This document shows positions 1 to 60,379 of a stretch of DNA of 64,000 bases, piece after piece. Origin of the DNA: Enoplolaimus lenunculus (lineage: Eukaryota); assembly GCA_030248215.1 (NCBI GenBank), contig JASANG010000611.1, positions 124,001-188,000 of the forward strand, in the 5' to 3' direction. The position numbers and the translations under genes were made by a program. The number at the start of each line of letters is the position of its first letter. Positions within the stretch are counted from its first letter, which is position 1. The notes beneath the pieces were generated by a model, which made no database searches, was not told the origin of the DNA, and saw only the letters and a program-made list of their open reading frames with translations.

Positions 1-1337
1 TAACACTCCGTAACCGAATAACAGAGTTGTGCCATCTGCAGACGCAAGCTAAAATATCAGTAGTGCCCAGTCTTTTTCGGGTCTCTCACAGCAGTATTCT
101 TGGAAATTTAGTAACTTGTGTTGTAGTAGTGTATATAATGATTTGATTTTTTTGTTTGTATTTTTGTGTATGGTTTAAACCTAGTGAAGCATTTTCGTTA
201 TATTATAGAAACTGCAAATACCATTAATAGAAACTAATATCTGTTCCGGAACCATCAAGTTGATATTCGTGTTTACATGCTAGTTTTGTTGCCGACCGAT
301 GTGATTCATAAGCTTAAAATATGCTGTGAAATTTTGAAAAAGTGTAATTACAATTTATTGCGTCAATACAGCTGTACATATTACGTTTTGTGAGATGTAT
401 TTCTTCCCAACATCGCGTTGTTTTAGGGTTTTTAATATTTAGCATCAAATCAAAACTTACATTTCAAAAACCTCCCCTCTCACAGTATAGGCCCGTAGCC
501 AACTCACCTTGTTATGGGGGTGGCTAAATAGTGTTCACGAGGGGCATACAAGGGGGGCAGAGATGCGTAATATGAACCCAATAGGAATTTAACAAAAAAG
601 TGACCTATCCTATAGATCTCCACCAATGGGGGCAGCATTAAAAGTAAATAAATTATTTTCATTAAATTTCTAGGAGGTCCATATTCCGAACCTCCGCCTA
701 CAAGGGGTTTGGATGATTTACAAGTACGGTTGAAAATTTTCTCTGAGGGCCACCCAAACACGGAAACCCTACCACGCACATATATATCCACATTAGGTGA
801 AGAACGGCGCAGCTTGTGATTGCATGCTGAACTCGAGCGCAAAAGGTCCAAGGTTCGTTTTTGGAGAGGTTCTAAACTTTCGGCAACATTTCTGGAAGGA
901 ATTGACTCCATCGTGCAGTTCCAACACATCCATTCTATCACTTAGCCAGAACCGTTGATTCATCGTTAAAAAGCACACACTTCTTTCAGCACCTAATGAT
1001 GAACGAAAATGACTCCTGTTGATTCAGATTCAACAAACGAACAGCGAAATCTTTCCGCCACAATTATTCGGGTCACTACAGTAGAATTGAAACACTGGCT
1101 CAGTGATATTCACAATAAGCAACCGAGACGATTAAAATGTTTTTAGTATTTATTTAAGAGGTTCATAAATAAATTTTTAAATTCTTTTTAATATTTAAAC
1201 ACAAAGTTTAGTTTTGATTTTTATTCAAAAAATATCCACTGCCAAAGCATCGAGATGTCCGTGGCCGTAATTAGTTGGAACATCATAGTTTAGCACAATG
1301 TAAATACTTCCACATTGTAATTGTTTAACCAAACAAT

Positions 1338-16779: not shown

Positions 16780-19135
16780 ATGGATGACCATTTGCCTATC
16801 TTGAAAATATCACGATTTTACAATAGTAAGAACTACATTGAAATACGAAGATTTGTTGAAATTATCTGCCGTTTAATATTTGAGCGTAAATATTCAGTTG
16901 AATTCGTTTCGCCTGAAGATAAATCTTTCGGAGCTGTAAACGCCAATGGCACATGGACGGGTATTATGAAAGATCTCATTAATGGAGTTACAAATCTATC
17001 AATGCCATACATGTTTTCTGCAATCGACCGAGTTGAAGCGCTCAAATATACGAAATATCCAATTTATGAGTTACGTGATGCGTTTTTGGTCAACAAAAAT
17101 ATGAAGCAAGAAAACGTAACGTACGTTTCAGATGTTTTTTGTGTTGTTTAAATTATTTGTAGTATCTTTTGACATAAGTTGATTTTAGGCCTAGAACAGC
17201 TAGCCAGTTTGTGCTCATGTATAGATTAGGGGGCTTAACGTCTATCTGCGGGACTGCAATAGAATAAGCTTGAACATTAGACTATTTTTTGTGTAGACTT
17301 AGGCTCAGGCGTAGGTCTAGGTATAAGATTATTTGTACCTTTAGGCTTAGGCTTATGCTTAGGCTTAGGAATACGCGAATACCGTTGGTACGGCTCTGTC
17401 TATGTAATTTTCTCAAGTTTGCAACAAAGTATATAATTTAGAGCTGCATTACCTACACTGATTGTTCAGTGTAGTATATCACTTTATAATCATCTTACCA
17501 CGGACTCACACCAAACGATTTCACAGATAAACGCTTAGTGGAGTATATAAGTTTAGTGCCGGAGCAGGCTAGGGTCGACCCCCAAAATTTCGGGGGTGAG
17601 AGCCCCTTGTCACGATCAAAATATTTTTCAATTTTTTTGTTTAAAATCTTGTTAGGGCAGCTGCCCTTGTTGGGGTGGGCCCCAAAATGGGGCATGGGGG
17701 TGGCAGATTCGGCCCTGCGCAACTTTTTAAATGGCAGGCATTTTTATTCAGCATCATGAGATACCATGCCTACAAGCGAAAACGTAGACCACAATCGCAT
17801 CAAGTTGTACGAATTCTCAGCCAGTTGTATTAGCCAGTCAGGTGCAGTTGCTGTAGAGGCTCGGGGCTCTGACAATTACTACCTTTTCTGTATAAATTGG
17901 CTATATAATTGAATTGCTGGAATGGTATGAACATATACTACAGACAGTAGATGCATTGAAAAGTGGGCCCACTTAAAGATCATTACTGGAAAACGTTTTT
18001 CTGCATGACCTCAATAGAGTAAGCTTAAGCTTTGTACAATTTTTTGTTAAGGTTAAGGCTCTAGCTTAGGAAGGTGTTTATTCTACTTTTGCGGCTCTGT
18101 TCTGTACATTGGTCGAAATAAATAATTTCGCGTACAAATAAGCCAGTAATTCATTGTAGACAAAAAGTAGCCTTAGCTTGAACTAGGTTTTTCGGGCTGG
18201 ATCCGGATTGGTCAACTCAAAGTTGGTGAGATTGTCGCGAATTTCTCAACGAAAAGGATGGCTTGAAATTTTAACCAAAACAGAAACTTATAATTCCGTT
18301 TAATAGGTTCCAGTGGCAGCTACTATTTTCATGGCAAATATGGTTGATAACAATTTCACTGTTGTTGTTTTTGGACGTTTTCTGTCTTCAAATTCGGTCA
18401 AAAAACCAAAAATGTGTCAACACGTGTTATTTTATTTATGTTCTTGTGTTTCAAATGTTGGTTTCGTCTGTAATTTTGAACAAATTTGTACCGTTCATCA
18501 CAGTACCGTTTAATGACGTTTTTGAAGCGGCCATTCAAGTTAAATATGGTAAATATCATATGATTTGCCCAAAAAGTTACTGCTCGGGTGGATATCGCGA
18601 TTTTCTTACTAGAGTGTTTAAGTCTTACTTTAATTGTACAGTGCCAGAACGAGTTCCAAACAACAACAATCAAAAATGCTTACAAATCAATGGTTTACGT
18701 TCGATTATTTCACACTTAAATGTTAATACCTCGGCATTTTTTTACTTACCCAGTGATGATGCCAATGTCTTGAGATATAAACATAACCAACTTAGCGTCA
18801 TTGAAGCAGAAGTTTCGCTGCGTCAAATGACAGTTGCGTATATTGCACTGCACAACTCGAATATACAGCTGGAAAACGAATACAACAGTGGATTAATGGC
18901 AGTGGATGCATATGGATTTGTTATATACTGGAAACGAAAATTGTCGCTTATGACAACACAAAAAGATCGTCAAACTATTGGTAATCCGCGTATAATTATT
19001 ACATCTGATCAACTAAAATCATTATTTTATGTTCTACTAGCAACACTATGCGTTTCCTGCACAATGCTACCGTTTGAATTGGTATACTTCAATGATTTCA
19101 ACGTCTACCAAGAGATACATTGGATTTTGGCGTAG
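16780..19135 (+). CDS. Divergent ionotropic receptor (iGluR/IR superfamily)-like gene, probable exons 16780-17120 and 18307-19135; 5' end unresolved, possibly a pseudogene
   Basis: S1-like YSVEFVSPEDKSFGAVNANGTWTGIMKDLING..DRVEALKYT. The splice AC|GTACGT..TTTAATAG|G joins it in frame to M1-like LFSWQIWLITISLLLF, then FITVPFNDVFE and a C-terminal TM LKSLFYVLLATLCVSCTMLPFEL. No signal peptide was found. Confidence 0.7.
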
Positions 19136-20754
19136 TTCTACACATATGGTTATAAACAGTCTGATAAATCGCGGTATGGGCTACACAATTATGGCAGGTG
19201 CAACCCTTTTAATTGCTACGCGAGTTTCTTGTAGCCTGGAATTGTATAAATGGCGATTCCGGCTCACTCCAAATTTGCTCTCATTCCTTAAAAATTTTAC
19301 AGATACGACGTGTTCACAATAAATTATTTTAAAAGAAAAATCCAGACTTCGGGAGAGGGGGGGTCACGGTTAAAAATATTAACTGGAGCAAAGACTCCTT
19401 TGGGATGTCGCAGCGTTTATAATAAAAAAAATTTGGCCGCTGCAAAACACTGAAATTTCCTAGCAACGGACAGGTGCGTTTGTAGGCGGTCGCATGAGCG
19501 CCGGGTAGATCATTTGCAGTCTAAGCGGCATGGAAAGTAACGCAATGCTATTTGCAATTTTCCAACGTGGTATACATACATATTACGAAATTAAAATCAA
19601 ATTTGATACATATGTCGCAGAGTACAGTGATTTAATAACATGAAACAAAGAATTATCACTTAGAGAAAGACAAAAATGTGTTATCTTAGCGACACGATAT
19701 ACTTAAGTACAGCAACGATATTTACAGAAATAGCGAAGTCAACCTAAAAGGCAACATATTCGTTCCCAATCGACAATTCTAGTAGTGAGAAAAAGGTGGG
19801 GGAGCGACAAAAAGGAGCAAACCCAGCTTTTTTGCACTACTACCAGTTGCATTGACAGAAGCATGGCTTCCAAAAATGGCAACAAATGCGAAAATTAATT
19901 TTTGCGTAATCCCTCAGCATTGGATAGGCTGAGGTTAGGTCTCGTTATGGTCAACAAAGCTTTGTTCTCGATATGAAATTATCTCTGAAAGTTAGTTTTG
20001 AACAATCTCTATACATAAAGTAATTAAAATTATAAAATTAAGTCTGTAGCCGTTTGACATGTCGACCAAGCATGCCAAATATTTTACAGGCAATAGAAAC
20101 ACGCTAAATTTAAATATAAAAATAGAATTCATTAAAAAATGGAACGAGATCATGAACAGCAAATGATAAGAAGCTTTCGAATAATCTGGTTCAGTCTGTT
20201 CCGACTATTAATTCCAAAAACACAAACTGGTGTTTGCTTTGTAAAAATCGAAACCGATTCCAATACCTTAAATTTTCCTTCAGTCTGAAAAAATACCGGC
20301 TTTGAAATTTTTGCCGAATTTCAAATCGAAGATCAACTTTTGTTAAACATCTTGATTGATATACAAACAACGAGTTTTAAGCGAACGTTTGGTGCAACTG
20401 CATTTAAGATGTTAAAGTTAGATGTATACTGCGCAACAGAGATAATCGCTTCATGACTTATGTACCGAGAAAAAGTGCAATAAAAATGTAGTGTGACTGC
20501 TCAATATTTGACAGCCGGTAAAAACGGAAATTCTGTATATACTTGTTGCACAACCCAACGTTTCGTTTTGACTGAACCTAGAACATTGTTAAAAACAAAG
20601 TACGAGTTAGTTCAAGTTTCGTTGCAAAAAAACCGGCTGCACCGAAACCGAAGTGTGATTCAGTTTGTGTAGTCCCGTAGAGCCTATTTCGGAGAGAGTC
20701 AATTTGACTCACAATTTTTTCCCAGCGACCGAAATTACGGCCCATGTATACTTG

Positions 20755-21600
20755 ACTGCAGGCTTTGGTTTAAGCATAAGTTAGATCTTAAACGACCCTT
20801 GCACTAAACACTAGGATTACACTTAGGCTTAGGCTTATTGTGCTTCGGCTTAGCCTTAGAGCGCGGCTTTAGAAATAGACTTTGGTTTAAACATAGATTA
20901 AATCTTAAATGACTTTTGGCTAAATCTATGGCTTGAGGCTTAGGCTTAGGCTTTTGGAGCGCGCTTAGGCAGTGGTTAAGCATAGATTAGGCGGTAAATG
21001 GCATAGGATTAGGCTTAGGCTTTAAACATAAGCTTTGGTTTAAACCTAAATTATACAGATCCTAAACGACCCTTGGGCTAAATCTCAGGCTTAGGCTTAG
21101 GCTTTGGGCTTAGGTTTAGGTTTAGGCTTAGGCTTCAAGAACATCTCCCCTTCGACCATATCTCGAAATCCCAAAATCCCATTACGCTTAGGCTTAGGCT
21201 CAGGCCTGGGCTTAGCTTTAAACTTAGGCTTTAGCAGCAGGCTTTGGTTTAAGCATAGATTAAATCTTAAATGACCCTTGGACTAAACCTTAGGCTTAGG
21301 CTTAGGCTTAAGCTTGATCTTAGGTTTAGGCTTAGACTGAGGCTTTAGGCATAGATTAAATCTTAAATGACCATTGGGCTAAATTTAAGGCTTAAAATAG
21401 GCTTAGGCTTAGACTTATTGTTTGGCTTGGGCTTAGGTTTGGGCCTCAGGGTTCGGTTAAGCATAGATTAGACGGTATGTCATACGCCAAATTGGCTTAG
21501 GTTTTAGGAATAGGATTTGGTTTAAACATGAGATTAGATCCTAAATGCCCATGGACTAATCTTAGGCTTAGGCTTAAATTGGGTTTAGGTTTAGACTTAG
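20755..21600 (+). repeat. Interstitial degenerate TTAGGC telomere-like array with ~120-bp higher-order unit
   Basis: Recurrent GCTTTGGTTTAAGCATAGATTAAATCTTAAATGACCCTTGG followed by (TTAGGC)n runs. Confidence 0.8.
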
Positions 21601-24291
21601 ACCAGATCTACCCAAGTCAGTGGATTTGAATGTAACTGCAATAGTTGGGTTGGTTGTAAGTAATTATCAAGTGAAATAAGCAAACTTTTCAGAATTGTTC
21701 AATATGGACCATTTTTACATTGACTTTTTATACTGTCAGTTAAAACTGAATCAGGAGGGTCTGGGACCATGTTCTAGCGAAAAATTAACAAGAATTACTG
21801 CTATGGGAAACACAAGAAACAATGTTAAAATGCATAGTTTTCCTCAATTTTTCTGTTTCGCTGGATGTTGCATTACATTAAAACCTTAAATTGGCATTAA
21901 GATGCTGCTCAGCAGCGCATTTTCGTAAAAACTATAGGTTTTTTCTTATGTCAAATCCTGCACAGTGCCTTTGGTCTTAAGTAGTAATCAAATTGGGCTT
22001 CTAATCCACTCTAAATTTTGCTTTAGATCATAAGAAAATCTATATTTCTATCTATTTAAAGTAAGGTTTGAGCCGATAACGTTACAGTTCCTACTAGTAG
22101 CTTTCGAAAATCTTTTAGGCCAAAGAAGCACGATGGTGGTGATAGGAAACCAAATAACAGATTGGCAGATGCAGCTAGCAACACAAACCCGTGCATAAAA
22201 CAAGAACATAGCAGAGTGAAAATTATCATGTATATAATTATAGTTTGGACGAGTCTTACAACTTCAAAAAATATAGACCTTCTTGTGCCGTCAGTTCAAA
22301 GTGACATCAGCAAGATACGGGTTAGGTTTAGGCATAAGCTATATAGTAGCGCCCCACCTTCGACTATATTCCGAAATCCCAAAATCACCCCTTCGACCAT
22401 ATTCCGAAATACCAAAATTTCCAAATCCCACTTTCGATATCATGAAATCCCAAAATCACTGCGTCGACAATATCCCGAAATTCCAAAATTCCACCTTCCA
22501 CCATATCCCAGAATCCCAAAATCCCACCTCCGACCATAGCTCAAATGTTGTTTCTGATAGGATTGTGGCATTTTAAGATGGCAGCGAGGTTTGAATGGGC
22601 CGAAATTTCAACTAAAAACGTTCGAATTACTTGCAGAACTCATGCCTTCTGCTAAAACGCAAAATTTGCTAATTTTTACCGTCTCTTCCAGCACCCCTTT
22701 GCATGGCCCTAATATGTGTTGAGGATAGGTAAGCTGTTCCAGTAATATATTCCCATTTCGCCAACTTTACCATTTTGAAACAAGAATCGATATTGAATCC
22801 TGTTTTTACGCCAAATGCTTCTTTCACTTTTCACTGGGCAGCCCGGAACATGTTTTGTTCGAGTTCATTAATCATCAACAAAAAGTGCTCTATATACCCG
22901 GTATGACCAGAAAATGTGAATATTACATGACACTGGCTTCTACGAACAAGTGCTCTCAACCTACAATCAAGTGGTTATCGTTTACAAGTAACCATCGGTC
23001 GAAAGACACTACGGACGTTAAATGCGAATACTATATTAGCATTCGCCAAATATCACATTGTACAAGACCATGTAATTTGAGCGCAATATTGATGCATCGT
23101 TAACTTTGTATCTCTCATGGACAGAGTGTTGAAAACACGAGCAAAACAGGCGTTGACGTCTGTTATTTAACGAGCAAGTATAAAAAGGTGTTAAATATTT
23201 GTTTTTGCACTAGTTGAAACTTTCTACTTGGGTTGTGGGCTTGTATGACTCCAAGGCACCAACTAGGGAAAAATTGTTCTAAAATCATCATTTTTCTTTG
23301 CATCTTTAGATTTTAGTGCTCTCAATTGTTGCGGTTGTGAATTTTTCAAAAAACACCAAAATAAAGCCGAGAACAGGTACAAGTATCTGCTCTATTTTAT
23401 TGGAATTGGTCAAAAATTCAAGTATTCCGCCATGGGTGAAAGCAGTTGATTTCGTTTATCTTTTCGTTTAGCACTGTTTGCCGTAGCATGATTATTTCGA
23501 ATTCATCTTATATCCTAGCCGGTAAATTTGGAAATCGTTACTTTTGCTTTCTTTAGCGTTTGTCTATAGATTGCGTTACAAGATAGGTGGCTGCTCTTTG
23601 TGTTCCATAGTTGGGCGCCGTAGCGTTTTCTATTTTTGAACCGGACAAGTTCCAGCTGATAAACATACTACATTTTTGCTTAAAGCTTAAATAGTCTTAG
23701 GCTTCGGGCTTTGCCATACAGTAGGCTTTAGGTGTAGGCTAGGAATATGCTATGTTTTGACCATTTTCTCCAGTCCGTAAAAAGAACGAGTACATCATTA
23801 AATCTAACAGGATCACGAGGGCTGTCGAGTCAGGTGAATCCTAGTCAACCATAGGAATCAAGTTTCAGCTTTGATCGAAGTTTCAGGAAGAAGGGAATGA
23901 CAAGTCCAAACTCAGTTTCCTACCAAATCCTTGCGTTTGCCCTATGCATTTGTTTGTGTGAGACAATTTTATTAAAATTTAATTCTTTTTCTCCGATTTC
24001 TAAGATTGTTACTGCATGAATAAAGAAAGGAAAAATAATACTAAGCTGTTTTTTCTGTAAATTTCAGGACCTAGTTGAAATAGCCAATACGGGATAATAA
24101 CATGTTTTTATTTATTGGTCTACTAGCATTTCCTATAAAATATATTTTATGGTATTTAGCCCTTTCAATTTCTTTACCAGAATTAAGAAGCCCCTATTAA
24201 TAATCATTACTTATTTGTTCCCCTTGGAGATACTTGTTTTACGGTTACGACGGTATTCGATTTATAAGTGATATAGCTAGCTACTACGTTG

Positions 24292-27200
24292 ATGGGTAAC
24301 ATAGTTTTGTTTTTAACGTTTTGTGTCGGACTAGGTTTCGCATTCCAGTACAAGCATCATGACACTCAAGCGGTAGTTGAATTGCTCGAGGAAATTAACC
24401 GAAAATGTCCGACGATCACGAAGCTTTATTCAGTGGGCAATAGTGTAGAAAATCGGCCGCTTCCTGTTATTCAGTTTGCGATTCCTGCTGAAAATGGCGA
24501 CATTCGCCACGACATTGGTAAGGTTAACAATTGTGTACGTCTTTATCGTTGAATAAACAGGTGTTTCGAGGTATTGGATAGGGATGTTCGTATTCGTGGT
24601 GTCAGTCTAGGAAGGAACCGGGACATCATACCTTTCAACTAAGCAGCTGGAAAAGCGGGCTAGAGGGTGGATCGAACTCTCAGCCTATGGATCCTTAAGC
24701 GAGCACTCTACCACTGCGCCACGTAGCCCGCCTGTCCAACTGCATTTTTCGTCGGCTATATTTGTCGACCGTATGCTGCCAGCTAGCATACATACAGTGC
24801 ACTGCACTATATTGCATGTGCACATAACGGACAAGCATGTCTCACATGCTTACATGCCCTTATTTTCAACAAGGTCGTCCCTTGACCGTCCATCCTATTT
24901 TCGACTGGATACCGGGTTCATAGCGCGGCAGTTTGCCATTGCGCTCACGGCGTAGCCCCCATGTCAGTCAAAGTTGTAAGTGAGGGATATCAGACCTTTC
25001 TACTAAGCAGCTGGAAAAGCGGGCTAGAGGGTGGATCGAACTCTCAGCCTATGGATCCTTAAGCGAGCACTCTACCACTGCGCTACGTAGCCCGCCTGTC
25101 CAACTGCATTTTTCGTCGACTATTTTTGTCGACCGTATGCTGCCAGCTAGCATACATACAGTGCACTGCACTATATTGCATGTGCACATAACGGACAAGC
25201 ATGTCTCACGTGCTTACACGTGGTATTGTATTTACTGCAACGTGGTGGTTATTACGTAAGTAATGTGTCAGGCTAGTGTGAGTAGCAGGCTGCTTTCGGT
25301 ACCAAAAATACCGGAGCCGGAAGTATCTGGCTGGAACCGGGTATCGGAACCGATAACTTTAATATGATGCTGTAATTGGCCTGGTTTGCGAACGGGAGAC
25401 CCGGGTTCTATCCGGACTGATCCAATATTTCATCTTGCGTTTTCTCAAACTTAAGTTGGGGATAGGTAGGGCTGTGTGTCGTATTGGTGCACGATCGGTA
25501 GTCAGTTATGGCGGCTGGCTACGCTGACCAAAAGATGTACTTTGGTGTTCTTGCTTCGGCAGATTCGATGTGGGCGGCAGTAGATCTTCGTTTCTCAGAC
25601 ACTGTTGGAAAAATGGGATCTGCACGACCCCCGTTCGAAGCTTTGCCCAAAGTTAAGGACCACGCCAGGAATCGAATCTCGGCTTTCTTGCGCTCGAGCC
25701 AAGCATGCTACCACTACACCATGTGGCCATTGTAACAGCTTCATATAGCGATATATGTGCACCAGGGTGCAAGCGGATATCAGGCTACGGCTCCAGCTCC
25801 GGCAAGAAATCGACATCCGGCTCCGGTATTCTAACTTGCCGAGTATGATTTTTAAAAAACATTAAACAATTTATACCATCATTCGTATTTATGCCAAGTA
25901 CCATTGGACAGACTGGCTTACTTTTACATATTTTTTCTGTCACACATGTAATTTAGATTTTTTGAATGTGATAGGTTACAATAACGCTGAAAAAATCAGC
26001 AGCACATTTCTATTATTCGTAAGGGTAAGCCTAAATTCAACGTCAAAATAAGACTATAAATAAGTAAGCAAAAATAATAGGTTGTTTTCGAGCCAGGGAT
26101 GGGCGGAAACCGAAAATAAAGTCTAGGTCTCGGTCAACTTTCGGTTATCACCGAAAAACATAAAATTTTCAAAAGAAATTATTTCTAAAGTCGGTTCCAA
26201 ACCACCGAGACTCAAGAAACCAAGACGTGCCAAATACCGATTATCGAGACTTGCTGAGATCGTGGCCCTGACTCCCATCCCTTGGGCTCCCCTAAATGTA
26301 ACATAAGCCATGTGAAGATTGCAACTGAACGCAACGCTACAAAAACATAGAATAGTATAATGTGGGTCGTTCTTAAAACGTTAAAAATGTATCAGTATGA
26401 GATGTTAAACTTTCTCACGTAAATACTTTAGGTACCTTAACGCGGAAGGCAGAATTGTACGGCACGTTCTAATGTCTGAATGCAATCTGGTATTAAATTT
26501 GAATTCATTATCCGGCTCCGTCAGTTTTTGGTTTCCGGTTTAACCCTGGTGCACATGGATTAAAATGTTTTTGCTTTGCATACGCTTATCTTGCACATAT
26601 ACCTCCATCCTTTTTCACAGGCGGTCGTCCCGCACATTGAATCCAACTCCCCGAATCCATGGACTTGCTGTTTGCACTGCCAAGTCTCGGTGGGACCTCC
26701 ATGTTGGAACAACCCGGTCTGCACGACCCCTGTTCGAAGTTTTCCCCAAAGTTCAGGACCACACCGAGATCGAACCATGGCCTTCTTGCGCTCGAGCCAA
26801 GCATGCTACCACCAGACCATGGGGTAATTGCAGCAACTTCATATACCGTTTTATGTGCAGTGCACATGTATTATAATCTTTTTGCTTTGCATACACTTAT
26901 CGTGTAATGCACATTCAGTGCCATAGAAGGTAAGGTGCATATGCGAAGCCAGAACAAACATAGCAGGGTGCCACCTAACTTACAATTTAGCTGCTTTCGA
27001 ATTCGAAACATACTGATTTTGCTGAATCTGATTCCGAATCCGGACCAGGGCGTCTAAAAATCACGTCATATAGATACGCGTGAACGTTGCAAGCCGAATG
27101 TTAAACAGGTAGTAAAAACATGTCAATTTTGAAATATATATATTTACAAACTAGGGATTTGCCGATAGCATAATTTTTGCCCATGCCGATACCGATGTCG

Positions 27201-30200
27201 ATTCTTATTTTAAAAATATGCCGATGCCGCTGCTAATTCCAAATTTACTATATACATTATGCATAAAGAACAGATAGGATACTACATTACGTACATCATT
27301 ATGCGAAGACTTAAAGCACAGCCACCATAAACGACTAAAATTATATGAGAACTGTTCATTATGATTATTTTTTCAAATACAAACTCAAGAGAGATAACAT
27401 TCTCTTTTTAGACACACTGGTATGCGCCAACAACTGAAATTGACAGCATTCCCACTGGCCACTGACTATTATGTGCAAAAAGTATCGGCAAAAAATAGGC
27501 ATTTTTTGCTGTGCCGATGTAGGTGCTCAGGAAAACTGCCGATTATTGCCGCTGCCGATTAATCGCCACATCCCTTGGATGAAAAATATTTTTTATTTTG
27601 AACTATGTATTGTCAGTTAGCAAAGTTTACACAGCAGCAGGGGTGGGCGATCTTGGGATTTAGCTGGTATCGGTCTCGATCTTGCTTTTTCCGGTGTAGG
27701 TGGTTTGCAAATCTAGACTAGACCAAAGAGTTGAAAAACCGATAAGCAACCACAAAAATTTCTCTTGGATCGCAGCTTTGGGCTAGAAGTATTTCTGCAT
27801 TTCGCCTTCCAAGACAGACAGCTAACGATTGTGAAGCACAGCTACCTGGTGATACAGCGATTTGAGAAACAGAATGACCCTTTGATTTTATTGTAACAAA
27901 GCTTAAACAGTTGCATTTTAGCGTTTAAAATATTTAAGGCATCGCGTAAAAATTATGGGTCATCCGTATTTATACCGTCTACGCTATGTTACGAAATTCT
28001 CCAGTCTACTGGGTCTGCCCTGGGATCAAGAACGACGCTACAGCTTTGAATGAATAAAGTAAAAAAATTAAGTTTGGCGGCGATTTATTAGTTTAATTGT
28101 ACGAGACGATAATTGAGATCAGATAGAATATATATTCAAAACTTTTGTTAAAAACTTTCCATTTTCGGTAACGGATAAAAATTGACTGTCTCGGTCTTGC
28201 TCTTTTGACCGAGACCGCCCATCCCTGCACTGCAGCAATGTTTTGCAATGTGAATGTGTACATAGACGGTATATTTCTTATTGGTTGGCGGAAGGGTGCA
28301 ACCGGAATTACAATTACCGAAACCGAAACTGGAATTTGAAAAAATTACGGGAGCGGAACCGGAACCGGAAAATGAAAAATACAGGTCACCTAAAAATTCA
28401 TGAAAAACTCATTTTTAAGCTTAGATTTTCAAAATCCACGGAAGCACAGTCTACCTTCGATGGTTTATTTTCGGTGATTGTCCAGGTTTATACACTAGGT
28501 CAAAAAATGTAGTAACCGGAAGGTCAAAAAGGCTGGAAATGGAATTCCAGTTGCACCCTGGTTGGCGGTCGTTTTTTGATTTGCGCTTTTTTATTCTGTT
28601 GAGGTTAGTCACGTGCTGCGCGAAGCGGGGGCTTTTGCAGTAAAGTATGGGTGGGGTTTGCGATTTCGGTTAAAATTAGATTCACAATTAGTTCTGATTC
28701 TGATGACAATTTTGAAATATTGTAACACACGAACTTTTCAGTTTCCATTCTTTTTGAAGCCGTTTTAGAAACGTTTTTCATTAAGCATTCGAGCGGATAG
28801 GTAAATGTTTTTCTGGTACCGTCTATTGTAACGTATGGCCCCGGCACCCTCTAACCCCGATGCCGTGGCCGAGATCCGGCTTCGGGACATCTCTAATTGG
28901 AACCCTGTTATACATGAACGTGCAAAAAGCAGAAACACGAATTTTAAGTAAAAAATTTACTTCCAACAGGATTTAGCTTCTTTCGCCTGGTACTGAGTGA
29001 GAGTTTGTCGCCCTCCACTATCCAGCAGGGGGAAACCCTTTATGGTTTATTGAGGGAAGCGAAACTACGAGCGAAGCTCGGAGTTTTGCGAAGCGGTTTA
29101 TGTTTTGTACTCGGGGGTCGAAAAGTGGATTTTCGTCTGTCTGTTTGTCCCTCTGTCCGTTCGAACAGAGTCTCAGAAAGCGCTGAACCGATTTTGATAA
29201 CCTTTTTTGTTTAAAAGCTTATCCTGGGGTGCTAACTCGCATTGGGAGCTTAAACTTTCAAGCCGTTTATTTCCTACCTGCTAATTTGCATAAGGGTTAA
29301 GCGTAAATTAGGACTTTTTACAGTATTTAACTAATTACCAATCGTACTGGGACTCAGGGTGGCAACAAAGGTTCGGATTCGGATTCAGCAAAAATTTGAG
29401 GTTCGGATTCGGATAACAAAGTTCGGCAATAATATGTTTTTTTCATTTTTAAGCAATAAAATTTTTAAATACCTTGCTATAAAAATCAATATTTTTATTT
29501 CAGGTGAGAAATCTCAGGACTGACGTCGGGTCGAAATATATTAACGTGTTAAAAGTTACGTATACGGCTGGCATTGCGTTTATATTCTAAAACAAATTAT
29601 AGATATATCTGAAATTTGCAACATGCAGGATTCGGATTCGGTTTCGGATTTGGCAAATTAGCACTGGATTCGGATTCGGTCAAATCGTGGATTCGGTTAT
29701 CAATCATGCAAATATGCAAATTAAGTAGTAGCTAACTATTAATTATCGGTTTCGAAGGTTTGTAGACAATTATTTAAATTCCTCGCACCCCAAAACCCTT
29801 TTATTGCTGAAAGATTGCTTGCAACGCTAATTATTAGTGAAATAACATAAAAAGTCACAATTTAGGCTTAACCGATTAAGCAAATATGCAAATTAGTTAT
29901 ATAATAGCTAACTATATATTCATTTATCGGTTCTGGAGATTTACAAAGATTTGATTTAGATTTCTCGCACAAAACCCCTTTAGTACTGAAATTATATTGC
30001 TTGTACCGTAATAATTTGTGAAATATCTTTAAAACTTTCAATTTAGGCTTAACCGATGCAAATTAGCCTGTTATATAGCTAATACACAGCTTAAAATTTT
30101 ATAACACCAATGCGAAGTTAACATCCCATGATGGCCGGCTTTCAAACATTATTAAAATCGGTTCAGCGGTTCCTACTCAATTACCAATGTGAGGTTAAAC

Positions 30201-33200
30201 CCCAGGATGACTGGCTTTCAAACAAAAAAGTTTATTAACATCGGTTCAGCGGTTCTTGATATTCTTTTCGGACGGACGGATATGCACCTTTTCACCCCCG
30301 TGCACAAAATATAAAACGCTTCGCGAATCTGTTTCGCTTCGCTCAATTAGGGTTATAAGCAATCTAATTTCAGTACTAAAGGTTTTTGGGTGTGAGCAAT
30401 CTGAATAAATTGTTCTTCAGCTTACAAAAGTGATATATAATTGAAAACGTAGTTAGCCAATAGCTAATTTGCATATTAGCTTAATTAGTGTTGCCTAAAT
30501 TAGGCTTTTTAAATTATTTCACTGATTAATTAGGGTTACATGTATTCAAATTCAGTACTAAAGGTTTTTGGTGCGAGAAATCTGAATAAATTGTTTACAA
30601 GCCTTCAAACCTGAATTGAATAAAACTTTTCAAATTATTTCACTGCGTATTAGGGTTACTGCAGGGTTTTTGGGTGCGCGCAATTAGAATAAATCCTTTA
30701 TGAACTTTAGACTGATAATTAAATAGTTGGGTAATAGCTAACTTATGTATTAGCTTACAGCTAAGCTTTAATTAGGCGGACCGGTAATCCGTACGTCGAG
30801 GGTTCGAGTCGCACCGAATCTGCAGTAAGCATGTCCGATCTTCGCTCAATAAATGTAGTTCTACTACGACTGGCAATATCATTTTACGTCAATCCTTGTA
30901 AACGCAGACACATCCAGAAAGTTGCAAAATGTAAAAGACTTTGGAAAAACAACCTTGTTTGTTACTTATATTTCAGTAAATACATACAACTGTATATATA
31001 ATCATTTATACACTAATACGTATACGTAAAAACTTAGAATTAAATTTTGTAGGTTTGACTGAGTTGACTGGTGTGTGGATCTTAATTTCAAGGGTTGGCT
31101 GACTTGACTGGTGCATTGTGGATCATTGAAGTTCACAAAATTTGTTGCAGCTGCTTTCTCATTGTCTGATGAAAAATGCAAGTTCTGCATGAAATTTGCA
31201 TCTACAAGTTCTCGCAGCAAAAACTTGAACGTGTGAATAGAGCTTAACCTTTCATTTCAGTAGGATTTCGACAATCTTTTTTGCCACAACGGGAACTGGA
31301 ACAGTAGTTGAACTTTCAATTTATATAAGTAGACTTTCACCCGAATATAAAAATTGTTCACGTGTCTTCTATGTTGCTTAAGTTGAAGCAGGTTTGTAGC
31401 CTCTAAGATTTTTTAGTTTTGCATTAGTGACACGTAACTTTTCCGACAGTAATTGAAGTTTTTATGAGCACATATATATTTTTCACTTATGTTCTGTGTT
31501 CGGCAAATTGAACATCCGGTCGCTTTGTATCTTGTGATGTGTGATGTACTTTATGTGACATTATGTATATTTTAAAGTACCGTTATGTACTAGTGTTTAA
31601 GACAAATTTGAAGCCATTTCAGTGAAATCAGAGGTTCTCGCTGTGGTCGTGATCTTCAGGATGTGCATCCCTGCTAAAAACATGCGGATTTTAGATTTTA
31701 TATAATACCGACCGGGATTGTCGGATTGCCTGAATCTTCGATTCTGTGATCTTTATAAAGAAATATACATCTACACGCGTATATAGTTTTCATGTAACCA
31801 GCTATACGTACTTACCTATGCCATATACGTACGTACGTGTATTCGACCGTTGTTGCATGTCATGTTTAGAGCCAGGCCCGTAGTCAGCTCATCGTGCTGG
31901 GGACTAAAAAATTTTCAGGAGGGGCATATTATGGTTTTCGTTGACTTACCAGCAGGTTGAGAGTTTTGTAGGGGCCGAGCCTCCCCTGCTTCCCTTGGCT
32001 ACGGGCTCGGTAAGAGCTCAGCATAGCATGTTGTGTATATCCAAAACTAGTGTCTTACTGAATGCCGAACTTAATGGAAATGTGTGTGCTAAGTAGCGTG
32101 TGTCGTGTAGGGTTTTCTGCTCGTTGCTGTGTTGTGACTGAGGCTTTTGATAGAATGGATGGCTTTGGGTTAGTTTCATATATGCACGTATATATAGACA
32201 TGCGTGTTGTTTGTTGGGTTATGCGTAAGGCTTGTCTCAGTCGGTTTGGTTAGCCAACAAAGACTGTTAGAAAATGTATTGTTTGTGTGTAAAGGCCTTT
32301 GAGCTTGCCTTGTCGATTCAAGGGTACATTATACTATTATTTTTATGAATGCGAATTTTTTTATTACGTATTAGTAAATGGTTGGTAATTGTAGTCATGT
32401 GATACATACTTAAGTAGTACGAGGTGTATTCAAACGAGTGGCACGTGGGTGGAAGAACATTTTCAATTTTATTAAATAGTGTATTTGTATAGGCCTTATA
32501 AGCACACATTACATTCACACTTAGTAAAGTTCTGTGTCTGCGTATTTGTCGGTTGTGTTGTGACGTTCGAGATGTTTTTGAAGGTACATTATGGGCTAGT
32601 GTACTGTATGATACTTTGCTAAAACAAACTTTATAGTTTAAATTTAAATGTTAAAGCGTTGTATATGTATATTAGATATATGTTCATATTTACGAATTGT
32701 GGCCTGTTTTTTATAAATGGTGTGTGGCAGTGATGGCATTTATATTTTGTAATGCCAGCAATATTATATATTTATTTTCTGTATGGGTAAATTATTGAAA
32801 AGTTATTTATTTGCAGCTAAATGTGTGTATTTTATGTATGTATTTACGTATGTAACCTTTGTATCTGATCAGCGTCTTGATCATTCATGAAAGTTATTTA
32901 AATGTTGATTTTCAAACAGACAATTACTATTCGAACAAGAATTCAAAATTTATTGGAAATATCAGATTTAATATGTAATGTACCAGAATGAAACTAATGA
33001 TACATGCTTATAACAGCGAACGCTAAAACCGCTTGAGAGCTATAGAATTGCGCTTCATTTTCGGAACCACGTAATACGTAGGTAGTGTTAATTGGTGAAC
33101 ATTGATATATGTCGGTCGATTAGTTCAAAATGTGCACAAGTTTTTGGTTCAGAGTGCTGTTCTTATTTATTTGTTGACCTAATGTGTTAAGTTTTATTTA

Positions 33201-36200
33201 CTAGAGACTTATAATTGGTTTTAATATAGTTTTTTTGTAGCCGTGTGAGCATAACGTACATTATTTTTGTTTCAGGTCGTCCAGAATTTAAATATGTTGG
33301 CAATATGCATGGTAACGAGGTTGTCGGTCGCGAAATGTTGTTAAAATTAGCTGACTATTTGTGCGATCGATACCAACATGGTGACGCGGAAGTGCGCAAA
33401 CTAGTCAATCTGACGTCAATTCATATCATGCCCACAATGAATCCGGACGGATACGAAATGGCGTACCGAATGGTATGTATATATGTCAGATGTGAATGAA
33501 ATAATTTATTTCATTTTGGGTTAATTTGGAAAATTTTAACCAATTGCTTTTCTGTAAAAACCTCTAAATTTTGAAAAACAAAAACCCTGTTGGAATTTGT
33601 TGAACTGTTCCTGTATTTTACTGCAAAATTATTGAGTCCATTTTGATTGTCACTAAATAATACGTATATGTTTCATAGAGCAGCGCTGTTTGGTTCCTAC
33701 TGTCGTGTGGGTGTCGAAATTGTTCGTAGTATGGTTAACTTTGTTTAAGTGGATTGATTCAGCGAACTTACGTGTATATATACTTTCCGCAAAATCCTCA
33801 ATGTACTTGTTCACTTTTTTACTGATTCATGAGTGTATAGGTTGGTTTGAATTTTTTCAGGGTGGTCAAGGTGGCTGGACGCTTGGTCGCGAAAATGCGC
33901 ATAACGTTGACTTAAATCGCGATTTTCCGGATTTGGACAGCTTATTGTTTTATCTCGAGTCGAATGGTGTACCGCGCTATGACCATTTGATGAGCGTATT
34001 TCACGACGAAAGCCGGGTAAGCTTGTGAATGGTGCCAGGTAAGCTTGTGAATGGTGATGTTGATCGATAATGCGGTGCACAATAAGCATTTGAAACCGGT
34101 TGAGGCTTGCCGTAGCATATTTTTACTGGAAAACAATATTTATAATATTAGCCGTATTTCAGTTTAGTCGACTAGATAAAAATTATCGTTTTACAGTTTG
34201 TTATCTATTCTGTGATTTACAAAATTTGATTTTTTAAGTAGCTAGAGTTATGCTGAACATAACGATAATAACGATCACTGGTGATATCGTACTTTTTAGT
34301 GGGAAGCAGTTTTTAAATATGTTTTTTCAAGTAGATACCACTGAATTCTGAGCTGAAATCGGTTCAGTTGTCTAATAAACATTTCGGGGCACCCACGCCG
34401 ACCGCTCCTTATAGCATTACACGGTTTGTTCAAACTTGCTTTTTTTACAGTTATCTCAGTAATACTAATATTATTGTTTATTGTTATAGCATGAACCGGA
34501 AACACGAGCGGTCGGCAGGTGGATTCTGCAAAGTCCGTTTGTGTTGAGTGCAAACTTGCACGAAGGTGATTTAGTCGCAAATTACCCGTTTGACTTGAGC
34601 AAAATCGAAGGCAAAAGCGTTTATTCTAAGTCACCAGATGATAGCACATTTAGGTGAGCGCATAATAAAATACACAATATTATCTTTTGCACCTGATTTT
34701 GTTAACATTTTAGCAGTTCGCTTAACGTTCTAGCTTCAGAAAAAAGTTGCATAAAAACTTTGGAACATATTTTACATTTTTGGAGAGCTTCGTTCACTGG
34801 ACGTTTTTTATTTAACTAAGTTTGCTAATTGTCGGATACAGATCGCTAACCACCATGCTTTGGCAAAAACATTTGCAGAATTGCGTAAAAATTGCACTGA
34901 ACTAGAATTGGAAAATTTTCATATTGTACAACATGCAGAGAATTGTTCAAAAACGTTATTGGAAAACTGTATCCCTAATGTCTGTTTGATTTAGATCTTT
35001 GGCGCTCGCTTGCTTGAAATGATACGTTTTTGGATCCGGTTTGCAAACCATGGGATTGCAAAAATTGTAGACCTATTTATAAAGCAGTGTATTAATAGTG
35101 TTTTATATCTTCTGAAAACTTTGCAAAATGCAAGAAATGCTGGAAATGTATAAAAATGATCATTTTAAACTTTGTCCAAGCAGAGTGGTGTGTATAATTT
35201 AGACACTTGGCGCTTGCTTACTCAACTGAACACACTACAATGGCTGATCCGGCGCGTAAACCATGCGATATGGCGGGCGATGATTATTTTGCGAAACATG
35301 GGGGAATCACTAATGGGGCGCGATGGTATTCGGTTGAAGGAGGTTGGTTTATTTAATGTGTCATGATGTTTAAAACCTGGCATTGACAGTAAGGGAACTA
35401 GTGTATTTATACACACAGTGATCTAGAAAAAATCGTGTCATTAATTGATATAAATCGAATGGTTACAAACGGATCTTTATAAAACATGAAGATTCATACA
35501 GGGGCACACGTTTTTGTCAAATATTGCACATGGAACCTGGGCTATCTTTGTATTCGCTACGCATGCTTATTATTTAGGAGGGTTGTCTTATTGTATTGAT
35601 TTTGTAGCCAATGTTACTTTTAGGGGCGTAACAACAGATTAAGCGTATTCCTAAGCCAAAGCCTAAGGGTTGCAATAATGTGTTCCTACGCCTAAGCCCA
35701 AGCCTAAGCAAAAAATGTAATTTAGAGTCTGAACCCACTTTGCGGAAAATTTTGTTCTAATTTGATTTAAAACGGAGACAGCTTGCAAGATGATCAAGGT
35801 GATTGTAATTGGTCACGGTATAATAAGGTATTACTTTTTGGTTTAGGAATGCAGGATTTTAACTACTTGGCGAGCAATTGTTTTGAAATAACTCTTGAAT
35901 TAAGCTGTCAGAAATTCCCGCCGGCTGAGCTCCTTGAAAACTATTGGAATGATAACAAAAACGCGCTACTTAACTTTATCTGGCAGGTAAGTATTGTTTA
36001 AATTTGAACCGTTTTATAAATTCAACATACGTGGAAAGGTATTTTTCAAAATGTATACACATTACACAGAACATTTTGATTGTAATTTTTAATGCAGCAT
36101 ATGCATACATAGCGAGTGTCAACAGTCTTTCAAGCCGAACAAATTTATTAATTATATGGATTGTGCAGTGTTTTAAATTTTTTTCGTTTCGACAGAAACG

Positions 36201-39378: not shown

Positions 39379-39485
39379 TTAAAAAAAATATTTTTATGCG
39401 AGCGAGCTGAGGTGGAAAAAAGTGCGAATTTGGTTAGAGACGTTGACCTCTCCCCCTGCATCCGTCTGCCTAAATTATATGCAGC

Positions 39486-42400
39486 TGCCCCGTTTTCCCA
39501 TTAGCCCGAAACAAACCTGTTTCATTTTCCCACCGAAAAATTGCAGTTGTCCCGTTTTCACATTTGCCCGAATCAGGTCTGTCTTATTGTCCCGCTTTCC
39601 CAGCGAAACAAACCTTTTCCGTTTTCCCAGTGAAAAATTGCAGCTGTCCGTTTTCCCATTTGCCCGAGACAGGCTTTTTCCATTGTCCAGATTTCCCAGC
39701 GAAAAGTTTCCGTTTTCCCATTTGCCGGAAGCAAACCTGTCCCGTTCTCAGCAAAAAATTTCAGCTGTCCCGTTTTCCCAGTTTTCCCAAACAGACCTGT
39801 CCCACTGTCCCGTTTCCCTAGCGAAATTTTGCAGCTGTTTCGTTTTGCTATTTGCCCGAAACAGGCCTTTCTCATTTTCCGGTCAATGTTACCCTAAAGG
39901 CCGTCCATTTTCCCGGGACAGAAATGTACCAGGAGTACCCGTCCCATTTTCCCGGGACAGCAATCTACCAGGAGTACATACAAAAAATATAATTGGGACA
40001 ACGGGACGGATGATACAGTGGGACAGATGAGACAGTTGGGACAGTTTGGACAGATGGGCCGTTGAGACAAATGGAACAGATTGGACAGTTGGTACACTTA
40101 GGACAGATGGGGCAGTTGGGACACATGGGACAGTTGGGACAGGTGGAACAGTCGGGACTAGGACAGTGGGACATCTGGGACCGTGGGTCAGTAGGACAGC
40201 TGGACAGTCCTACTGTCCCATTGTCCCACTGTCCCGCTATCCTACTGTCCCGCTGTCCTACTGTCCTACTGTCCCGCTGTCCTAGTGTCCTACTGTCCCG
40301 CTGTCCTGCTGTTCCACTGTCCCGCTGTCCTACTGTCCCACTGTCCTGCTGTTCCTCTGCCCTACTGTTCCGTTGTCCCGCTGTCCTACTGTACCGCTGT
40401 CCTACTGTCCTGCGGTCCCACTGTCCCGCAGTCCTACTGTCCCGCTGTCCTGCTATCCCTGCCCCGCTGTCTTACTGACCCACTGTCCCGCTGTCCTACT
40501 GTCCCACTGTCCCGCTGTCCTACTGTCTCACTGTCCCACCGTCCCGCTGTCCTATTGTCACGCTGTCCTACTGTCCTGCTGTCCTACTGTCCCGCTGTCC
40601 TACTGTCCTGCTGTTCCACTGTGTCCCGTTTTCCTAGCGAAATTTTGCAGCTGTCTCGTTTTGCTATTTGCCCGAAACAGGCCTTTCTCATTTTCCGGCC
40701 AATGTTACCCTAAAAAGGCCGTCCATTTTCCCGGGACAGAAATGTACCAGGAGTACCCGTCCCATTTTCCCCGGACAGCAATCTACCAGGAGTACATACA
40801 AAAAATATAATTGGGACAGCGGGACAGATGATACAGTGGGACAGATGAGACAGTTGGGACAGATGGGGCAGTTGGGACACATGGGACAGTCGGGACAGTT
40901 GGGACAGATGGAACAGTCGGGACTCGGACAGTGGGACAGCTGGGACAGTGGGCCAGTAGGACAGCAGGACAGTCCTACTGTCCCACTGACCCATTGTCCC
41001 ACTGTCCCGCTATCCTACTGTCCTGCTGTCCCACTGTCCTACTGTCCCGCTGTCCCGCTGTCCTGCTGTTCCACTCTCCCGCTGTCCTATTGTCCCACTG
41101 TCCTACTGTCCCACTGTCCCGCTGTCCTACTGTCCCACTGTCCTGCTGTCCCTCTGTCCTACTGTTCCGCTGTCCCGCTGTGCTACTGTACCGCTGTCCT
41201 ACTGTCCCGCTGTCCTACTGTCCCACTGTCCTACTGTCTCACTGTCCCACCGTCCCGCTGCCCTACTGTCACGCCGTCCTACTGTCCTGCTGTCCTACTG
41301 TCCCGCTGTCCTACTGTCCCGCTGTCCTACTGTCCCGCCGCCCTACTGTCCCGCTGTCCTGCTGTTCCACTGTCCCACTGTCCTACTGTCCCACTATCAC
41401 ACTGTCCCGCTGTCCCACTGTCCCGCTGTCCCGTTTTCCTAGCGAAATTTTGCAGCTGTCTCGTTTTACTATTTGCCCGAAACAGGCCTTTCTCATTTTC
41501 CGGCCAATGTTACCCTAAAGGCCGTCCATTTTCCCGGGACAGAAATGTACCAGGAGTACCCGTCCCATTTTCCCCGGACAGCAATCTACCAGGAGTACAT
41601 ACAAAAAATATAATTGGGACAGCGGGACAGATGATACAGTGGGACAGATGAGACAGTTGGGACAGATGGGACAGTTTGGACAGATGGGACAGTTTGGACA
41701 GATGGGACGTTGAGACAAAGGGAACAGATTGGACAGTTGGTACACTTAGGACAGATGGGGCAGTTGGGACACATGGGACAGTCGGGACAGTTGGGACAGA
41801 TGGAACAGTCGGGACTCGGACAGTGGGACAGCTGGGACAGTGGGCCAGTAGGACAGCAGGACAGTCCTACTGTCCCACTGACCCATTGTCCCACTGTCCC
41901 GCTATCCTACTGTCCTGCTGTCCCACTGTCCTACTGTCCCGCTGTCCTGCTGTTCCACTCTCCCGCTGTCCTATTGTCCCACTGTCCTACTGTCCCACTG
42001 TCCCGCTGTCCTACTGTCCCACTGTCCTGCTGTCCCTCTGTCCTACTGTTCCGCTGTCCCGCTGTGCTACTGTACCGCTGTCCTACTGTCCCGCTGTCCT
42101 ACTGTCCCACTGTCCTACTGTCTCACTGTCCCACCGTCCCGCTGCCCTACTGTCACGCCGTCCTACTGTCCTGCTGTCCTACTGTCCCGCTGTCCTACTG
42201 TCCCGCTGTCCTACTGTCCCGCTGCCCTACTGTCCCGCTGTCCTGCTGTCCCGCTGTCCTGCTGTTCCACTGTCCCACTGTCCTACTGTCCCACTATCTC
42301 ACTGTCCCGCTGTCCCACTGTCCCGCTGTCCCGTTTTCCTAGCGAAATTTTGCAGCTGTCTCGTTTTACTATTTGCCCGAAACAGGCCTTTCTCATTTTC

Positions 42401-44094: not shown

Positions 44095-44132
44095 AAATTT
44101 TTAAAAAAAACATACACTGAAAATGGAATTAA

Positions 44133-58000: not shown

Positions 58001-60379
58001 ATATACGAAGGCTCACGCTTAGTTTAAGGCTTAGGTAAGCCTATTTCTATACCTAGCCTGAGACAAAGCCTGAGCCGAAACGTAAAAGTCTAAGACTTAC
58101 CATTAAATGTTCGGCGTAAAAACATGTGTGACGTGGTTGTCCTGGTGTATATGCAATATATGCAATGCACATCACATTGTGTAGTATGGTTGCCGGCAGC
58201 ATACGATCGTCACATATTGTCGACGTTTAAAGCAGTTGAAGAGGCGGAAAGCCGCTGGGTCGATCCCCGCTCTGTAGGTCCGCTTCTCTAGCTGCTTAGT
58301 TAAAAAGGTCTCAAGTCCTGGTTCATACCTAGACTGACACGGCGGCTACGCCGTGAGCGCAATGGTGAATTGCCGCGCTATAAACACGGTATCTAGTCGA
58401 AAATAGGAAGGACGATTAAGGGAAGATCGAATTGAAAATTGGGGTATGTAAACATGTGAGACATCTTGACCTGGTGCATATACAATATATGCAATGCACA
58501 TTGTGTAGTATGCATGCCGGCAGCATACGGTCGACACATACAGTCGACGATAAAAGCAGTTGGAGAAGCTGGCTACGTGGCGCAGTGGTAGAGCTCAGGC
58601 CTCGCAATCCTAAGGCCGCTCGTTCGATCCCCGCTCTGTAGGTCCGCTTCTTCAGTTGCTTATAGCTGATAAAGGGTTGAAGCCCCGGTTCCTACCTATA
58701 CTGTCATTCAGCAAAGTGCGCAACAGCCAACAATAGAAACGCTTTTGGGTCATAGTCAATTCGAGATAAAATATCAAAACTACTCAGTGGCCTATACCGA
58801 AAGATAAGCCTTGACCGTAAGCCTCTGAGAAAAGTGTACAAGAATCATACTGTTTCAGGCATTGGCAATCTTACATTTCGCGACGTAATGACACTACACA
58901 TCATCGACTGTGTATGTATTTCAGTATTTACATTGGAATTTTTACTCAAAGTTTGGTCAAGCCCTAACCGTTGGGCGTATCTTCGACGTCCTTTGGCAGT
59001 GATCGACGTTTTATCAGTCCTTCCGTCGTACATTGAACTAATTATATCATCGTTAATGACCCTAAACGTTCAAGGGCTCAACACTCTGCGTATCCTTCGT
59101 ATTTTTCGTACATTCCGTGTATTTCGCGTGCTTAATATTGCACGATATCAAAGCAGTTTCAAAGTAATCGTACTGTGTATTAAAGATAGTATTCCTGAAT
59201 TTATACTGTTATTTTTTCATTTATTTGTTGCAACTCTACTGTTTGGTAGCGCGTTATATTATATTGAATCAACACAAAAATCGACACCGTTTTCGAGTAT
59301 TCCGGTCGCAGTGTACTGGTCTATTGGTAAGTGCTTAATAAAACGATTACAATGATATCTAAGCCTAAAAGCGTAAGGGTGAGCCTGTTGCTAACCCTAT
59401 GCCTAAGCTTAAGAAAAATGTTAGTCTAGAGCTTAAACTGACTCTATTACAGCCCCGAAGAAAAATCGATCCGGCCTTTCTATACATGGGTCATATTTCT
59501 TTGCTTAAAGATATTCTCACTAAAACTCTTCCAGCACATAGTGATTGGAATTATAAAATTGGATTACTGTTAGGCGTTAGGCGTTTGATTCCGTTGCTGA
59601 ATATTCTCGTCGCAATGTTTTAATCATATTGGAATACGAGTCTTTTTTAAAACATCTCACTCACAAAAAGTCTTGCCTACGACGTGAATGAAACAATAAA
59701 CGACGCAAAGGATTGCGCTTAGTCTTTGGTTTAGGCGTAAAGTTTAGGCGTTGCAAATTAGTAACCAGCGCTGTTGGAGACTTTTTCTTTCTATCAAAAT
59801 GATACTTGAGCGAAGAGAATGTAAGCATTTACAGTCTTTGATCGGTGTTGTAAAACTTTGATTTAACCAAAACTTTGTTTGTTCCCAAAATTAGATCACA
59901 ACATCGTATAAAATATTTTGCAACGGAAACATTGCGCAGGAATTATTACCCTACAGCCGAGTCGGCAAAACCTTTCGTTTTAGTGTTTGAAACTGTTGTA
60001 AATTTTAAATATAACATTTCGGCCTACGACAACAACTTGCCTCAGCCGAAGTCTTTGCCTATGCATAAGCCATAGCGTTAACAGAAATTGTAGAATAAAG
60101 TATACAAGAGCCAATTTAATAACATTTATTTAAAATTTACGCATACTGAGTGTGATCATTTCAGTGACGTATTTCTCGTATGCTGAAACGCAACCAACAT
60201 CAACAGCTGGTAAATTAGTCGCCGCTGCTGCGTCGATATTCGGAATTGTTCTTATGGCACTGCCAGTGAGCGTCGTTGTTGACAAATTTTCATATTATTT
60301 CAAGTTGCATCGCTACGAAATGTTGATGCGAAAACAAAAGCAACACGCACGTCAGTCGTTGAATTTGCCGCGATTCTGA
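55027..60379 (+). CDS. Voltage-gated potassium channel family (Kv, T1-containing) subunit with non-canonical pore; exons 55027-56172, 57086-57329, 58859-59326, 60165-60379
   Basis: T1 (INVGG..HPSGRL..YFDR..YYQTG..EEIGFW); S1 (IWDMME..FQIISTLFILLNI); S2 (CISVFTLEFLLKVWSSP); S3 (IDVLSVLPSYI); S4 (LRILRIFRTFRVFRVLNIARY); S5 (LFGSALYYIE); pore helix (FSSIPVAVYWSIVT); S6 (GKLV..FGIVLMALPVSVVV). An upstream exon is possible and the exon-2 donor (GTGTAT) is weak. Confidence 0.88.
58115..58706 (+). mobile_element. Second, older copy of TRIM family 1 in Kv intron 2
   Basis: LTRs 58115-58339 and 58447-58706; 107-bp interior with CGGCGGCTACGCCGTGAG (58340-58357) and GAAAATTGGGG; TSD TTCGG / TTCAG; GGCTACGTGGCGCAGTGG...GTTCGATCC in the 3' LTR. 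Confidence 0.82.

Follow-up and report, generated by a model that had tools for sequence, protein, structure and literature searches.

Within the window, by which we mean the whole 64,000-nucleotide stretch of DNA analyzed, two families of TRIMs carry a tRNA-like module in their LTRs, and our preferred reading, to which we give a probability of roughly 60%, is that the modules of both families would share a single origin, a Pro-type tRNA gene or SINE head, and are likely Pol III promoters, with host tRNAs acting as primers and with the primer of family 2 differing from that of family 1. An earlier, sequence-only reading of the same DNA had already proposed TRIMs with LTR modules derived from tRNA, and this is borne out by the LTR pairs, PBS, PPT, and A and B boxes present in both families. 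A tRNA-derived SINE was also considered and is ruled out by the LTR pair, the PBS, and the PPT. The same reading had placed the system at 24655..26820, where the elements do lie, although boundaries so drawn cut into them; families 1 and 2 together make a unit that spans 24595-26913, within which no ORF of at least 120 aa was found.

Copy A of family 1 occupies 24600-25218 on the minus strand and is 619 bp long, with TG..CA LTR ends. Its 5' LTR (24962..25218, 257 bp, TG..CA) holds a module at 25021..25092 with an A box, a B box, and C73 but no CCA, followed by TTTT at 25018-25015, and its 3' LTR (24600..24854, 255 bp) holds a module at 24657-24728, followed by TTTT at 24654-24651. Between the LTRs lie 107 bp, which by the coordinates include the 18-nt PBS (24944..24961, Pro-type, reading C73) as well as the internal region (24855..24943), the end of which is a purine-rich PPT adjoining the 3' LTR. 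The element is flanked by two exactly matching copies of a 5-bp target site duplication, CCACG, at 25219..25223 (left copy) and 24595..24599 (right copy), also given for the minus strand, and its LTRs are identical at 221/227 positions with the last ~30 nt excluded. The last ~25 nt of the 5' LTR (24962-24992) are unlike the 3' LTR and most aligned contigs, with the rest 97% identical, which looks like a local replacement adjoining the PBS.

A second, diverged copy of family 1, copy B, lies on the plus strand at 58115..58706, between exons of the voltage-gated potassium channel gene. It has a 5' LTR (58115-58339) in which the module is partly deleted, a PBS at 58340-58357 that reads G73, and a 3' LTR (58447-58706) whose module starts at 58571; its flanks match at 4/5 positions, compared with 5/5 for the target duplication of copy A. 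A stretch of the internal region is complementary to the PBS in both copies (58340-58401 on the plus strand and 24961-24900 on the minus strand), and in copy B a predicted hairpin with the internal region would hide most of the PBS, with a z value of only -1.32. At 24915, the commonest letter among family-1 copies would restore part of this pairing between PBS and internal region.

Family 2 is older than family 1 and interrupted, its copy spanning 25603-26913 on the minus strand and measuring about 525 bp without its insert. The 5' LTR (26702..26913, module at 26756-26826) has an approximate start and an end set by the loose contig ends at 26702, where unrelated flanks leave the family-2 alignment; it is followed by the PBS (26684..26701), a perfect tRNA-Gln complement, and by an internal region (26598..26683) with a terminal PPT at 26616-26598. 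The 3' LTR (25603..26597, module at 25657-25728) is split by a 786-bp insert at 25763..26548 that has short imperfect terminal inverted repeats and resembles a non-autonomous DNA transposon. The end of this insert at ~26500-26547 is repetitive in its own right, and a related piece is found at 53376-53441. The two family-2 LTRs are ~82% alike; a target site duplication of this copy was looked for, and none was recovered. Additionally, a decayed family-2-like LTR fragment is present on the plus strand at 776..923 (score 72 against a shuffle mean of 18.5).

Contigs from three DNA runs aligned to family 1 (4,236, 10,648, and 6,667 contigs) and to family 2 (385, 879, and 656), with the depth of aligned contigs not to be equated with copy number. 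The runs belong to one study, come from at most two samples, possibly with the source of the window among them, and were used only for variation among copies. At the ends of copy A at 24600 and 24854, 95-179 contigs per run continue into unrelated flanks, and both families are dispersed, abundant repeats whose ends are fixed. Both lie antisense, right after a carboxypeptidase exon, and probably sit in an intron.

The carboxypeptidase gene is one of several host genes found among 1329-5600, 18275-19135, 24286-34028, 49033-50157, and 55009-59355, which are, in order, an OATP transporter, a possible membrane receptor ORF without a Pfam match, an M14 carboxypeptidase, a trophoblast-glycoprotein-like LRR protein, and the voltage-gated potassium channel. 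Repeats elsewhere in the window include a compound tandem array at 39480-43450, with 8-9-nt units in ~800-900-bp higher-order repeats and GC-rich relative to the window, and a 325-bp tandem repeat at 62445-63370 with an inverted copy 18 kb away at 44129-44399. Degenerate TTAGGC arrays occur in dispersed repeats at 20750-21540, 43920-44050, 60450-60660, and other places, TTAGGC being the canonical nematode telomere repeat according to a literature listing. Together with genes of animal type, these arrays suggest, short of proof, that the host is a nematode; the protein clusters compared for host placement were mostly from arthropods, with one from a nematode.

The tRNA-like piece in each LTR is 71-75 nt long and contains A and B boxes, is partly lost in one copy B LTR, and in no case encodes CCA. 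Against the Rfam tRNA family, the family-1 5' module scores 20.5 bits, under the gathering score of 29, and the family-2 3' module scores 35.4 bits. ARAGORN calls only the latter as a tRNA, with a CGA (Ser) anticodon and a short variable arm; at a low threshold the same program made 216 calls in the window, which are noise. Modules of this kind inflate tRNA gene calls, as with the tRNA-Ser called here. In a folding test of five modules, none folded better than its shuffles and none formed a cloverleaf, the family-1 modules having z values of -0.36, -0.07, and -0.09 and 3/5 pairs in the T-stem. A BLAST search of the family-2 module against phages returned 25 matches with E values of about 9, none of them to a tRNA. 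Aligned in register, the modules of the two families are identical at 38/72 positions (local score 32 against a shuffle mean of 14.9), and outside the module 1/4 LTR comparisons between the families was significant (P 0.003), which leaves the case for a shared LTR ancestry beyond the module weak.

The termini of the modules differ among copies. In copy A, both modules are followed by two bases and then by TTTT, and the distance from the 5' module to the TTTT of the 3' LTR is about 440 nt; no T4 follows the family-2 module. The family-1 module had been described as ending in TAGCCC, which is the case in copy A but is not universal, with three extra bases at this end in copy B and with 34 and 37 contigs of two runs breaking off at 24669 with another 3' end. 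Contigs that leave the alignment at 24709 and 24669 reveal additional subfamilies, which differ in the anticodon arm and in the 3' end. In two runs, 45-53 contigs have the 5' part of the module and then a well-paired, Val-like anticodon arm beyond 24709, which suggests another subfamily, a SINE, or host tRNA genes.

In family 1, the module and the PBS have an acceptor stem in common, as the sequence-only reading had claimed. The module starts with GGCTACG (at 25092 and 24728 in copy A), which equals PBS positions 5-11 in 3/3 intact family-1 modules, and C73 is likewise common to both. This match was compared with a surrogate panel of 194 distinct tRNAs from 121 viral-contig loci, which are viral and not the host's own, were fetched with Pro and Gln motifs, and are accordingly enriched for these types (40 Pro and 18 Gln; 173 distinct 3' ends); ARAGORN calls were left out where the anticodon was unclear, where a standard T-loop was missing, or where the call lay at the edge of its locus. 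Within the panel, 7/7 acceptor identity was seen in 28/29,642 cross-isotype pairs compared to 42/2,938 same-isotype pairs, and because such identity is so rare across isotypes, the family-1 match exceeds chance and would indicate a single tRNA type. The predicted 9 nt of pairing after trimming and CCA addition were also recovered: the copy A module end plus CCA forms 9 contiguous pairs with its own PBS, 14/18 in total, at a dG of -20.3, compared to a shuffle mean of -12, a result equaled by 1 of 1000 shuffles for one LTR and by none of 1000 for the other. The copy B module end, on the other hand, pairs with neither PBS (10/18, P 0.6), and 7/173 panel ends pair with the family-1 PBS as strongly as family 1's own module does.

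The tRNA type of family 1 is probably Pro, as judged from comparisons of its letters. Pro tRNAs supply 6/7 of the best panel 3' ends for the family-1 PBS, C73 is present in 36/40 Pro tRNAs of the panel against 2/154 of the others, and for both copy A modules Pro ranks first among the 194 surrogate tRNAs by best score and by mean; the copy B module scores 44 with Tyr, 43 with Thr, and 38 with Pro, which comes ninth. Compared by hand to the Aplysia tRNA-Pro in Fig. S2 of Kojima (PMC10886601), the family-1 PBS shows 8 contiguous pairs and 15/18 with two bulges, and in that paper Gypsy-13_CGi has a similarly imperfect Pro PBS. An Arg-type primer was also considered, given the G73 of the copy B PBS and a family-2 acceptor strand equal to a published Arg end, and was ranked lower, there being no C>G change of at least 3% among the rows listed. 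A tRNA with the predicted primer end was found at 0 loci in viral contigs and 0 in metagenomes, which are collections of other than eukaryotic genomes; a looser pattern gave 120 loci from 6/64 parts of the collection scanned, 0/120 of them inside an ARAGORN tRNA. A scan of viral contigs for the LTR-PBS junction likewise gave 0.

In family 2, the PBS and the module do not match. The Gln assignment of the PBS stands, with 18/18 pairs to a panel tRNA-Gln (read from 26701 to 26684) and 12/12 to a published metazoan Gln 3' end, and among the rows listed for contigs of the three runs there is no difference of at least 15% inside it. The claim of a Gln-like module, by contrast, goes back to one LTR copy (26756-26826). 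The module of this 5' LTR pairs with its Gln PBS at 15/18 positions (1 of 1000 shuffles as good), whereas that of its sister 3' LTR does so at 13/18, within chance (227 of 1000). Furthermore, what makes the 5' copy Gln-like is a set of minority letters, replaced in 94-97% of depth at 26826 and 26822, in 74-83% at 26763, and in 46-78% at 26767, and many contigs clipped at 26766-26769 read as the 3' copy does. The best panel scores of the two family-2 modules are 49 and 47 with Pro against 41 and 36 with Gln, and Pro is also first by mean; in a hand count against human tRNAs (PMC5159642), the 3' module tied, with 43/72 for Pro and 44 with two gaps for Gln. Judged by these letters, the acceptor end of the family-2 module, which is the part read by a PBS, is not Gln, and the module body is not firmly assigned. 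The co-variation of PBS and module that the sequence-only reading had drawn from two families therefore fails in one of them (n=2), an outcome which it had itself named as telling against the idea.

The family-2 modules do pair with the PBS of family 1, at 17/18 and 16/18 positions and with dG values of -28.9 and -29.1, which is better than family 1's own module and better than 173/173 panel ends, and in the aligned contigs the common family-2 variants leave the acceptor stem fully paired. The simplest account of these observations is a single Pro-type host tRNA behind the family-1 PBS and both modules, each of which has decayed at different places.

A Pol III transcript of about 440 nt could start at the 5' module, run through the weak TTTT behind it, and end at the TTTT in the 3' LTR, with the module forming the R region; Cassandra transcripts similarly extend from the gene fragment in the 5' LTR to that in the 3' LTR (PMC10886601). 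The transcript would be packaged by a helper element, and the primers would be host tRNAs, of Pro type for family 1 and tRNA-Gln for family 2. The family-1 module would then match its PBS because family 1 still uses that tRNA type, while family 2 would combine the same kind of module with another primer, and the 17/18 and 16/18 cross-pairing is what would be expected if the PBS and both modules reflect one tRNA. Primer type is described as changing within Helenus lineages (Kojima 2024, PMC10886601), partial pairing of 8-18 nt is described as sufficient in known elements (PMC13524379), and the PBS of Ty1 and Ty3 is described as not being re-copied from the primer, so that it can drift (PMC5371799). 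For this last reason, no argument is built on the idea that a self-primed element would have its PBS rewritten. The sense orientation, mid-LTR position, and gene-like form of the module would speak for its descent from a tRNA gene or SINE head. Counting against this explanation, no helper element was found.

It is unlikely that, instead, the LTR of a Pro-primed ancestor gained its module when RT copied the packaged primer tRNA into it, and that family 2 changed its PBS later. The acceptor 7-mer and C73 common to the family-1 module and PBS are consistent with such a capture, as is the enrichment of primer tRNAs in particles that is established for retroviruses. A mosquito Gypsy element is also described with CCA-bearing tRNA copies inserted at the PBS (PMC3286476). 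Nevertheless, a copy made by the standard scheme would be expected to be antisense, CCA-bearing, and at the LTR end, whereas the module is sense, mid-LTR, and without CCA, is followed in copy A by a trailer and TTTT as in a gene, and matches the PBS in only 1/2 families. These features speak against the module having been captured from a tRNA in its priming role, which had been one of the origins suggested.

Rather unlikely, too, is the broader proposal that no host tRNA fits family 1 well as a primer and that a CCA-tailed tRNA mimic takes this role, made from a TRIM LTR, in the first place the family-2 module (17/18) and otherwise its own. If such an LTR-made primer were real, mobile elements would provide one another with primers in trans, and retrotransposons would have a new way of being primed.

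We consider it improbable that the complementarity between module and PBS arises within each copy, the module 3' end and the PBS forming an imperfect inverted repeat ~60-80 nt apart that hairpin selection or template switching would make converge. A module complementary to its own PBS is found in copy A and one family-2 LTR and is missing in copy B and the other family-2 LTR. The 14/18 pairing of the copy A end would fit convergence, and so would the rare letters that raise the pairing of the family-2 LTR adjoining the Gln PBS to 15/18. However, the module end is identical in both copy A LTRs, the copy B PBS is predicted to pair, if weakly, with the internal region instead, and a single copy amounts to an anecdote.

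That the family-2 module is transcribed, trimmed after C73, CCA-tailed, and used to prime family 1 is highly doubtful, even with a pairing stronger than that of every panel end, a 3' module accepted as a tRNA by both ARAGORN and Rfam, and common variants in which the acceptor stem is fully paired. The pairing includes three or four G-U pairs, descent from one host tRNA predicts equal pairing, there is no T4 behind the module, and the CGA anticodon disagrees with the short variable arm, as in the non-functional Helenus modules of PMC10886601.

Least probable of all is that the module of family 1 yields a CCA-tailed RNA that primes its own PBS, as the 9 contiguous pairs and the TTTT just past the module, which could stop a short transcript, might suggest. 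Processing by RNase Z and the CCA enzyme depends on the acceptor-T half, and the family-1 module has no cloverleaf fold, a broken T-stem, and broken 6-7/66-67 pairs; its 3' end differs from copy to copy although the PBS does not, the copy B end is unpaired with the PBS, unrelated panel ends pair equally strongly, and the family-2 PBS is perfect for a host-type tRNA. Kojima also reports no LTR-PBS complementarity in Helenus (PMC10886601).

Helenus (TRIMp3) elements are short non-coding TRIMs with a tRNA-derived module in each LTR, known from animals, fungi, and a plant (Kojima 2024, PMC10886601). The elements described here resemble them in having two LTRs and no protein coding, in length (311-1263 bp in Kojima against 619 bp for family 1 copy A and about 525 bp for family 2), and in having an A-box/B-box module in the LTRs, a PBS after the 5' LTR, a PPT before the 3' LTR, and a degenerate cloverleaf. 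A Pro PBS is present in one bivalve Helenus family, the target duplications are 4-6 bp compared to 5 bp in family 1, and Pol III transcription is a proposal for Helenus as it is here (PMC10886601). Among the differences, all animal (Gypsy-linked) Helenus elements with a value have a 4-bp duplication where copy A has 5 bp, nematodes are not among the six animal phyla in Kojima's table where the host here is likely a nematode, the Gln PBS of family 2 is absent from Kojima's Fig. S2, and no module-PBS complementarity is reported where family 1 has a partial one (PMC10886601). The 5-bp duplication would point to a helper distinct from the Gypsy elements that have been suggested for the other Helenus of animals. 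For family 1, we take BEL/Pao to be a candidate helper on the basis of this duplication. The module-PBS match of family 1 runs against Kojima's general statement, and family 2 shows that shared tRNA ancestry can explain such a match.

Cassandra and Ajax also carry a Pol III gene fragment in each LTR, and Ajax, which is found in animals, has 5-bp duplications, but their fragment is 5S rRNA and the one here is tRNA (PMC10886601). Ty3 and Ty1 are similar in the partial pairing of the PBS to a host tRNA and in a PBS not re-copied from the primer, and differ in being autonomous, Pol II-transcribed, and primed by initiator Met tRNA (PMC5371799). Our literature search, which most subscription journals lay outside, found no nematode tRNA-bearing TRIM and no self-encoded primer. 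The C. elegans BEL/Pao element Cer7 has reportedly been proposed to encode its own tRNA-like primer, which, if so, would make it a nematode LTR element with an element-encoded primer; it is autonomous, and its tRNA-like piece is reportedly internal and not in the LTR. The two families described here thus belong to a known element class in a host phylum that is probably new for it, and they likely extend tRNA-bearing TRIMs to nematodes.
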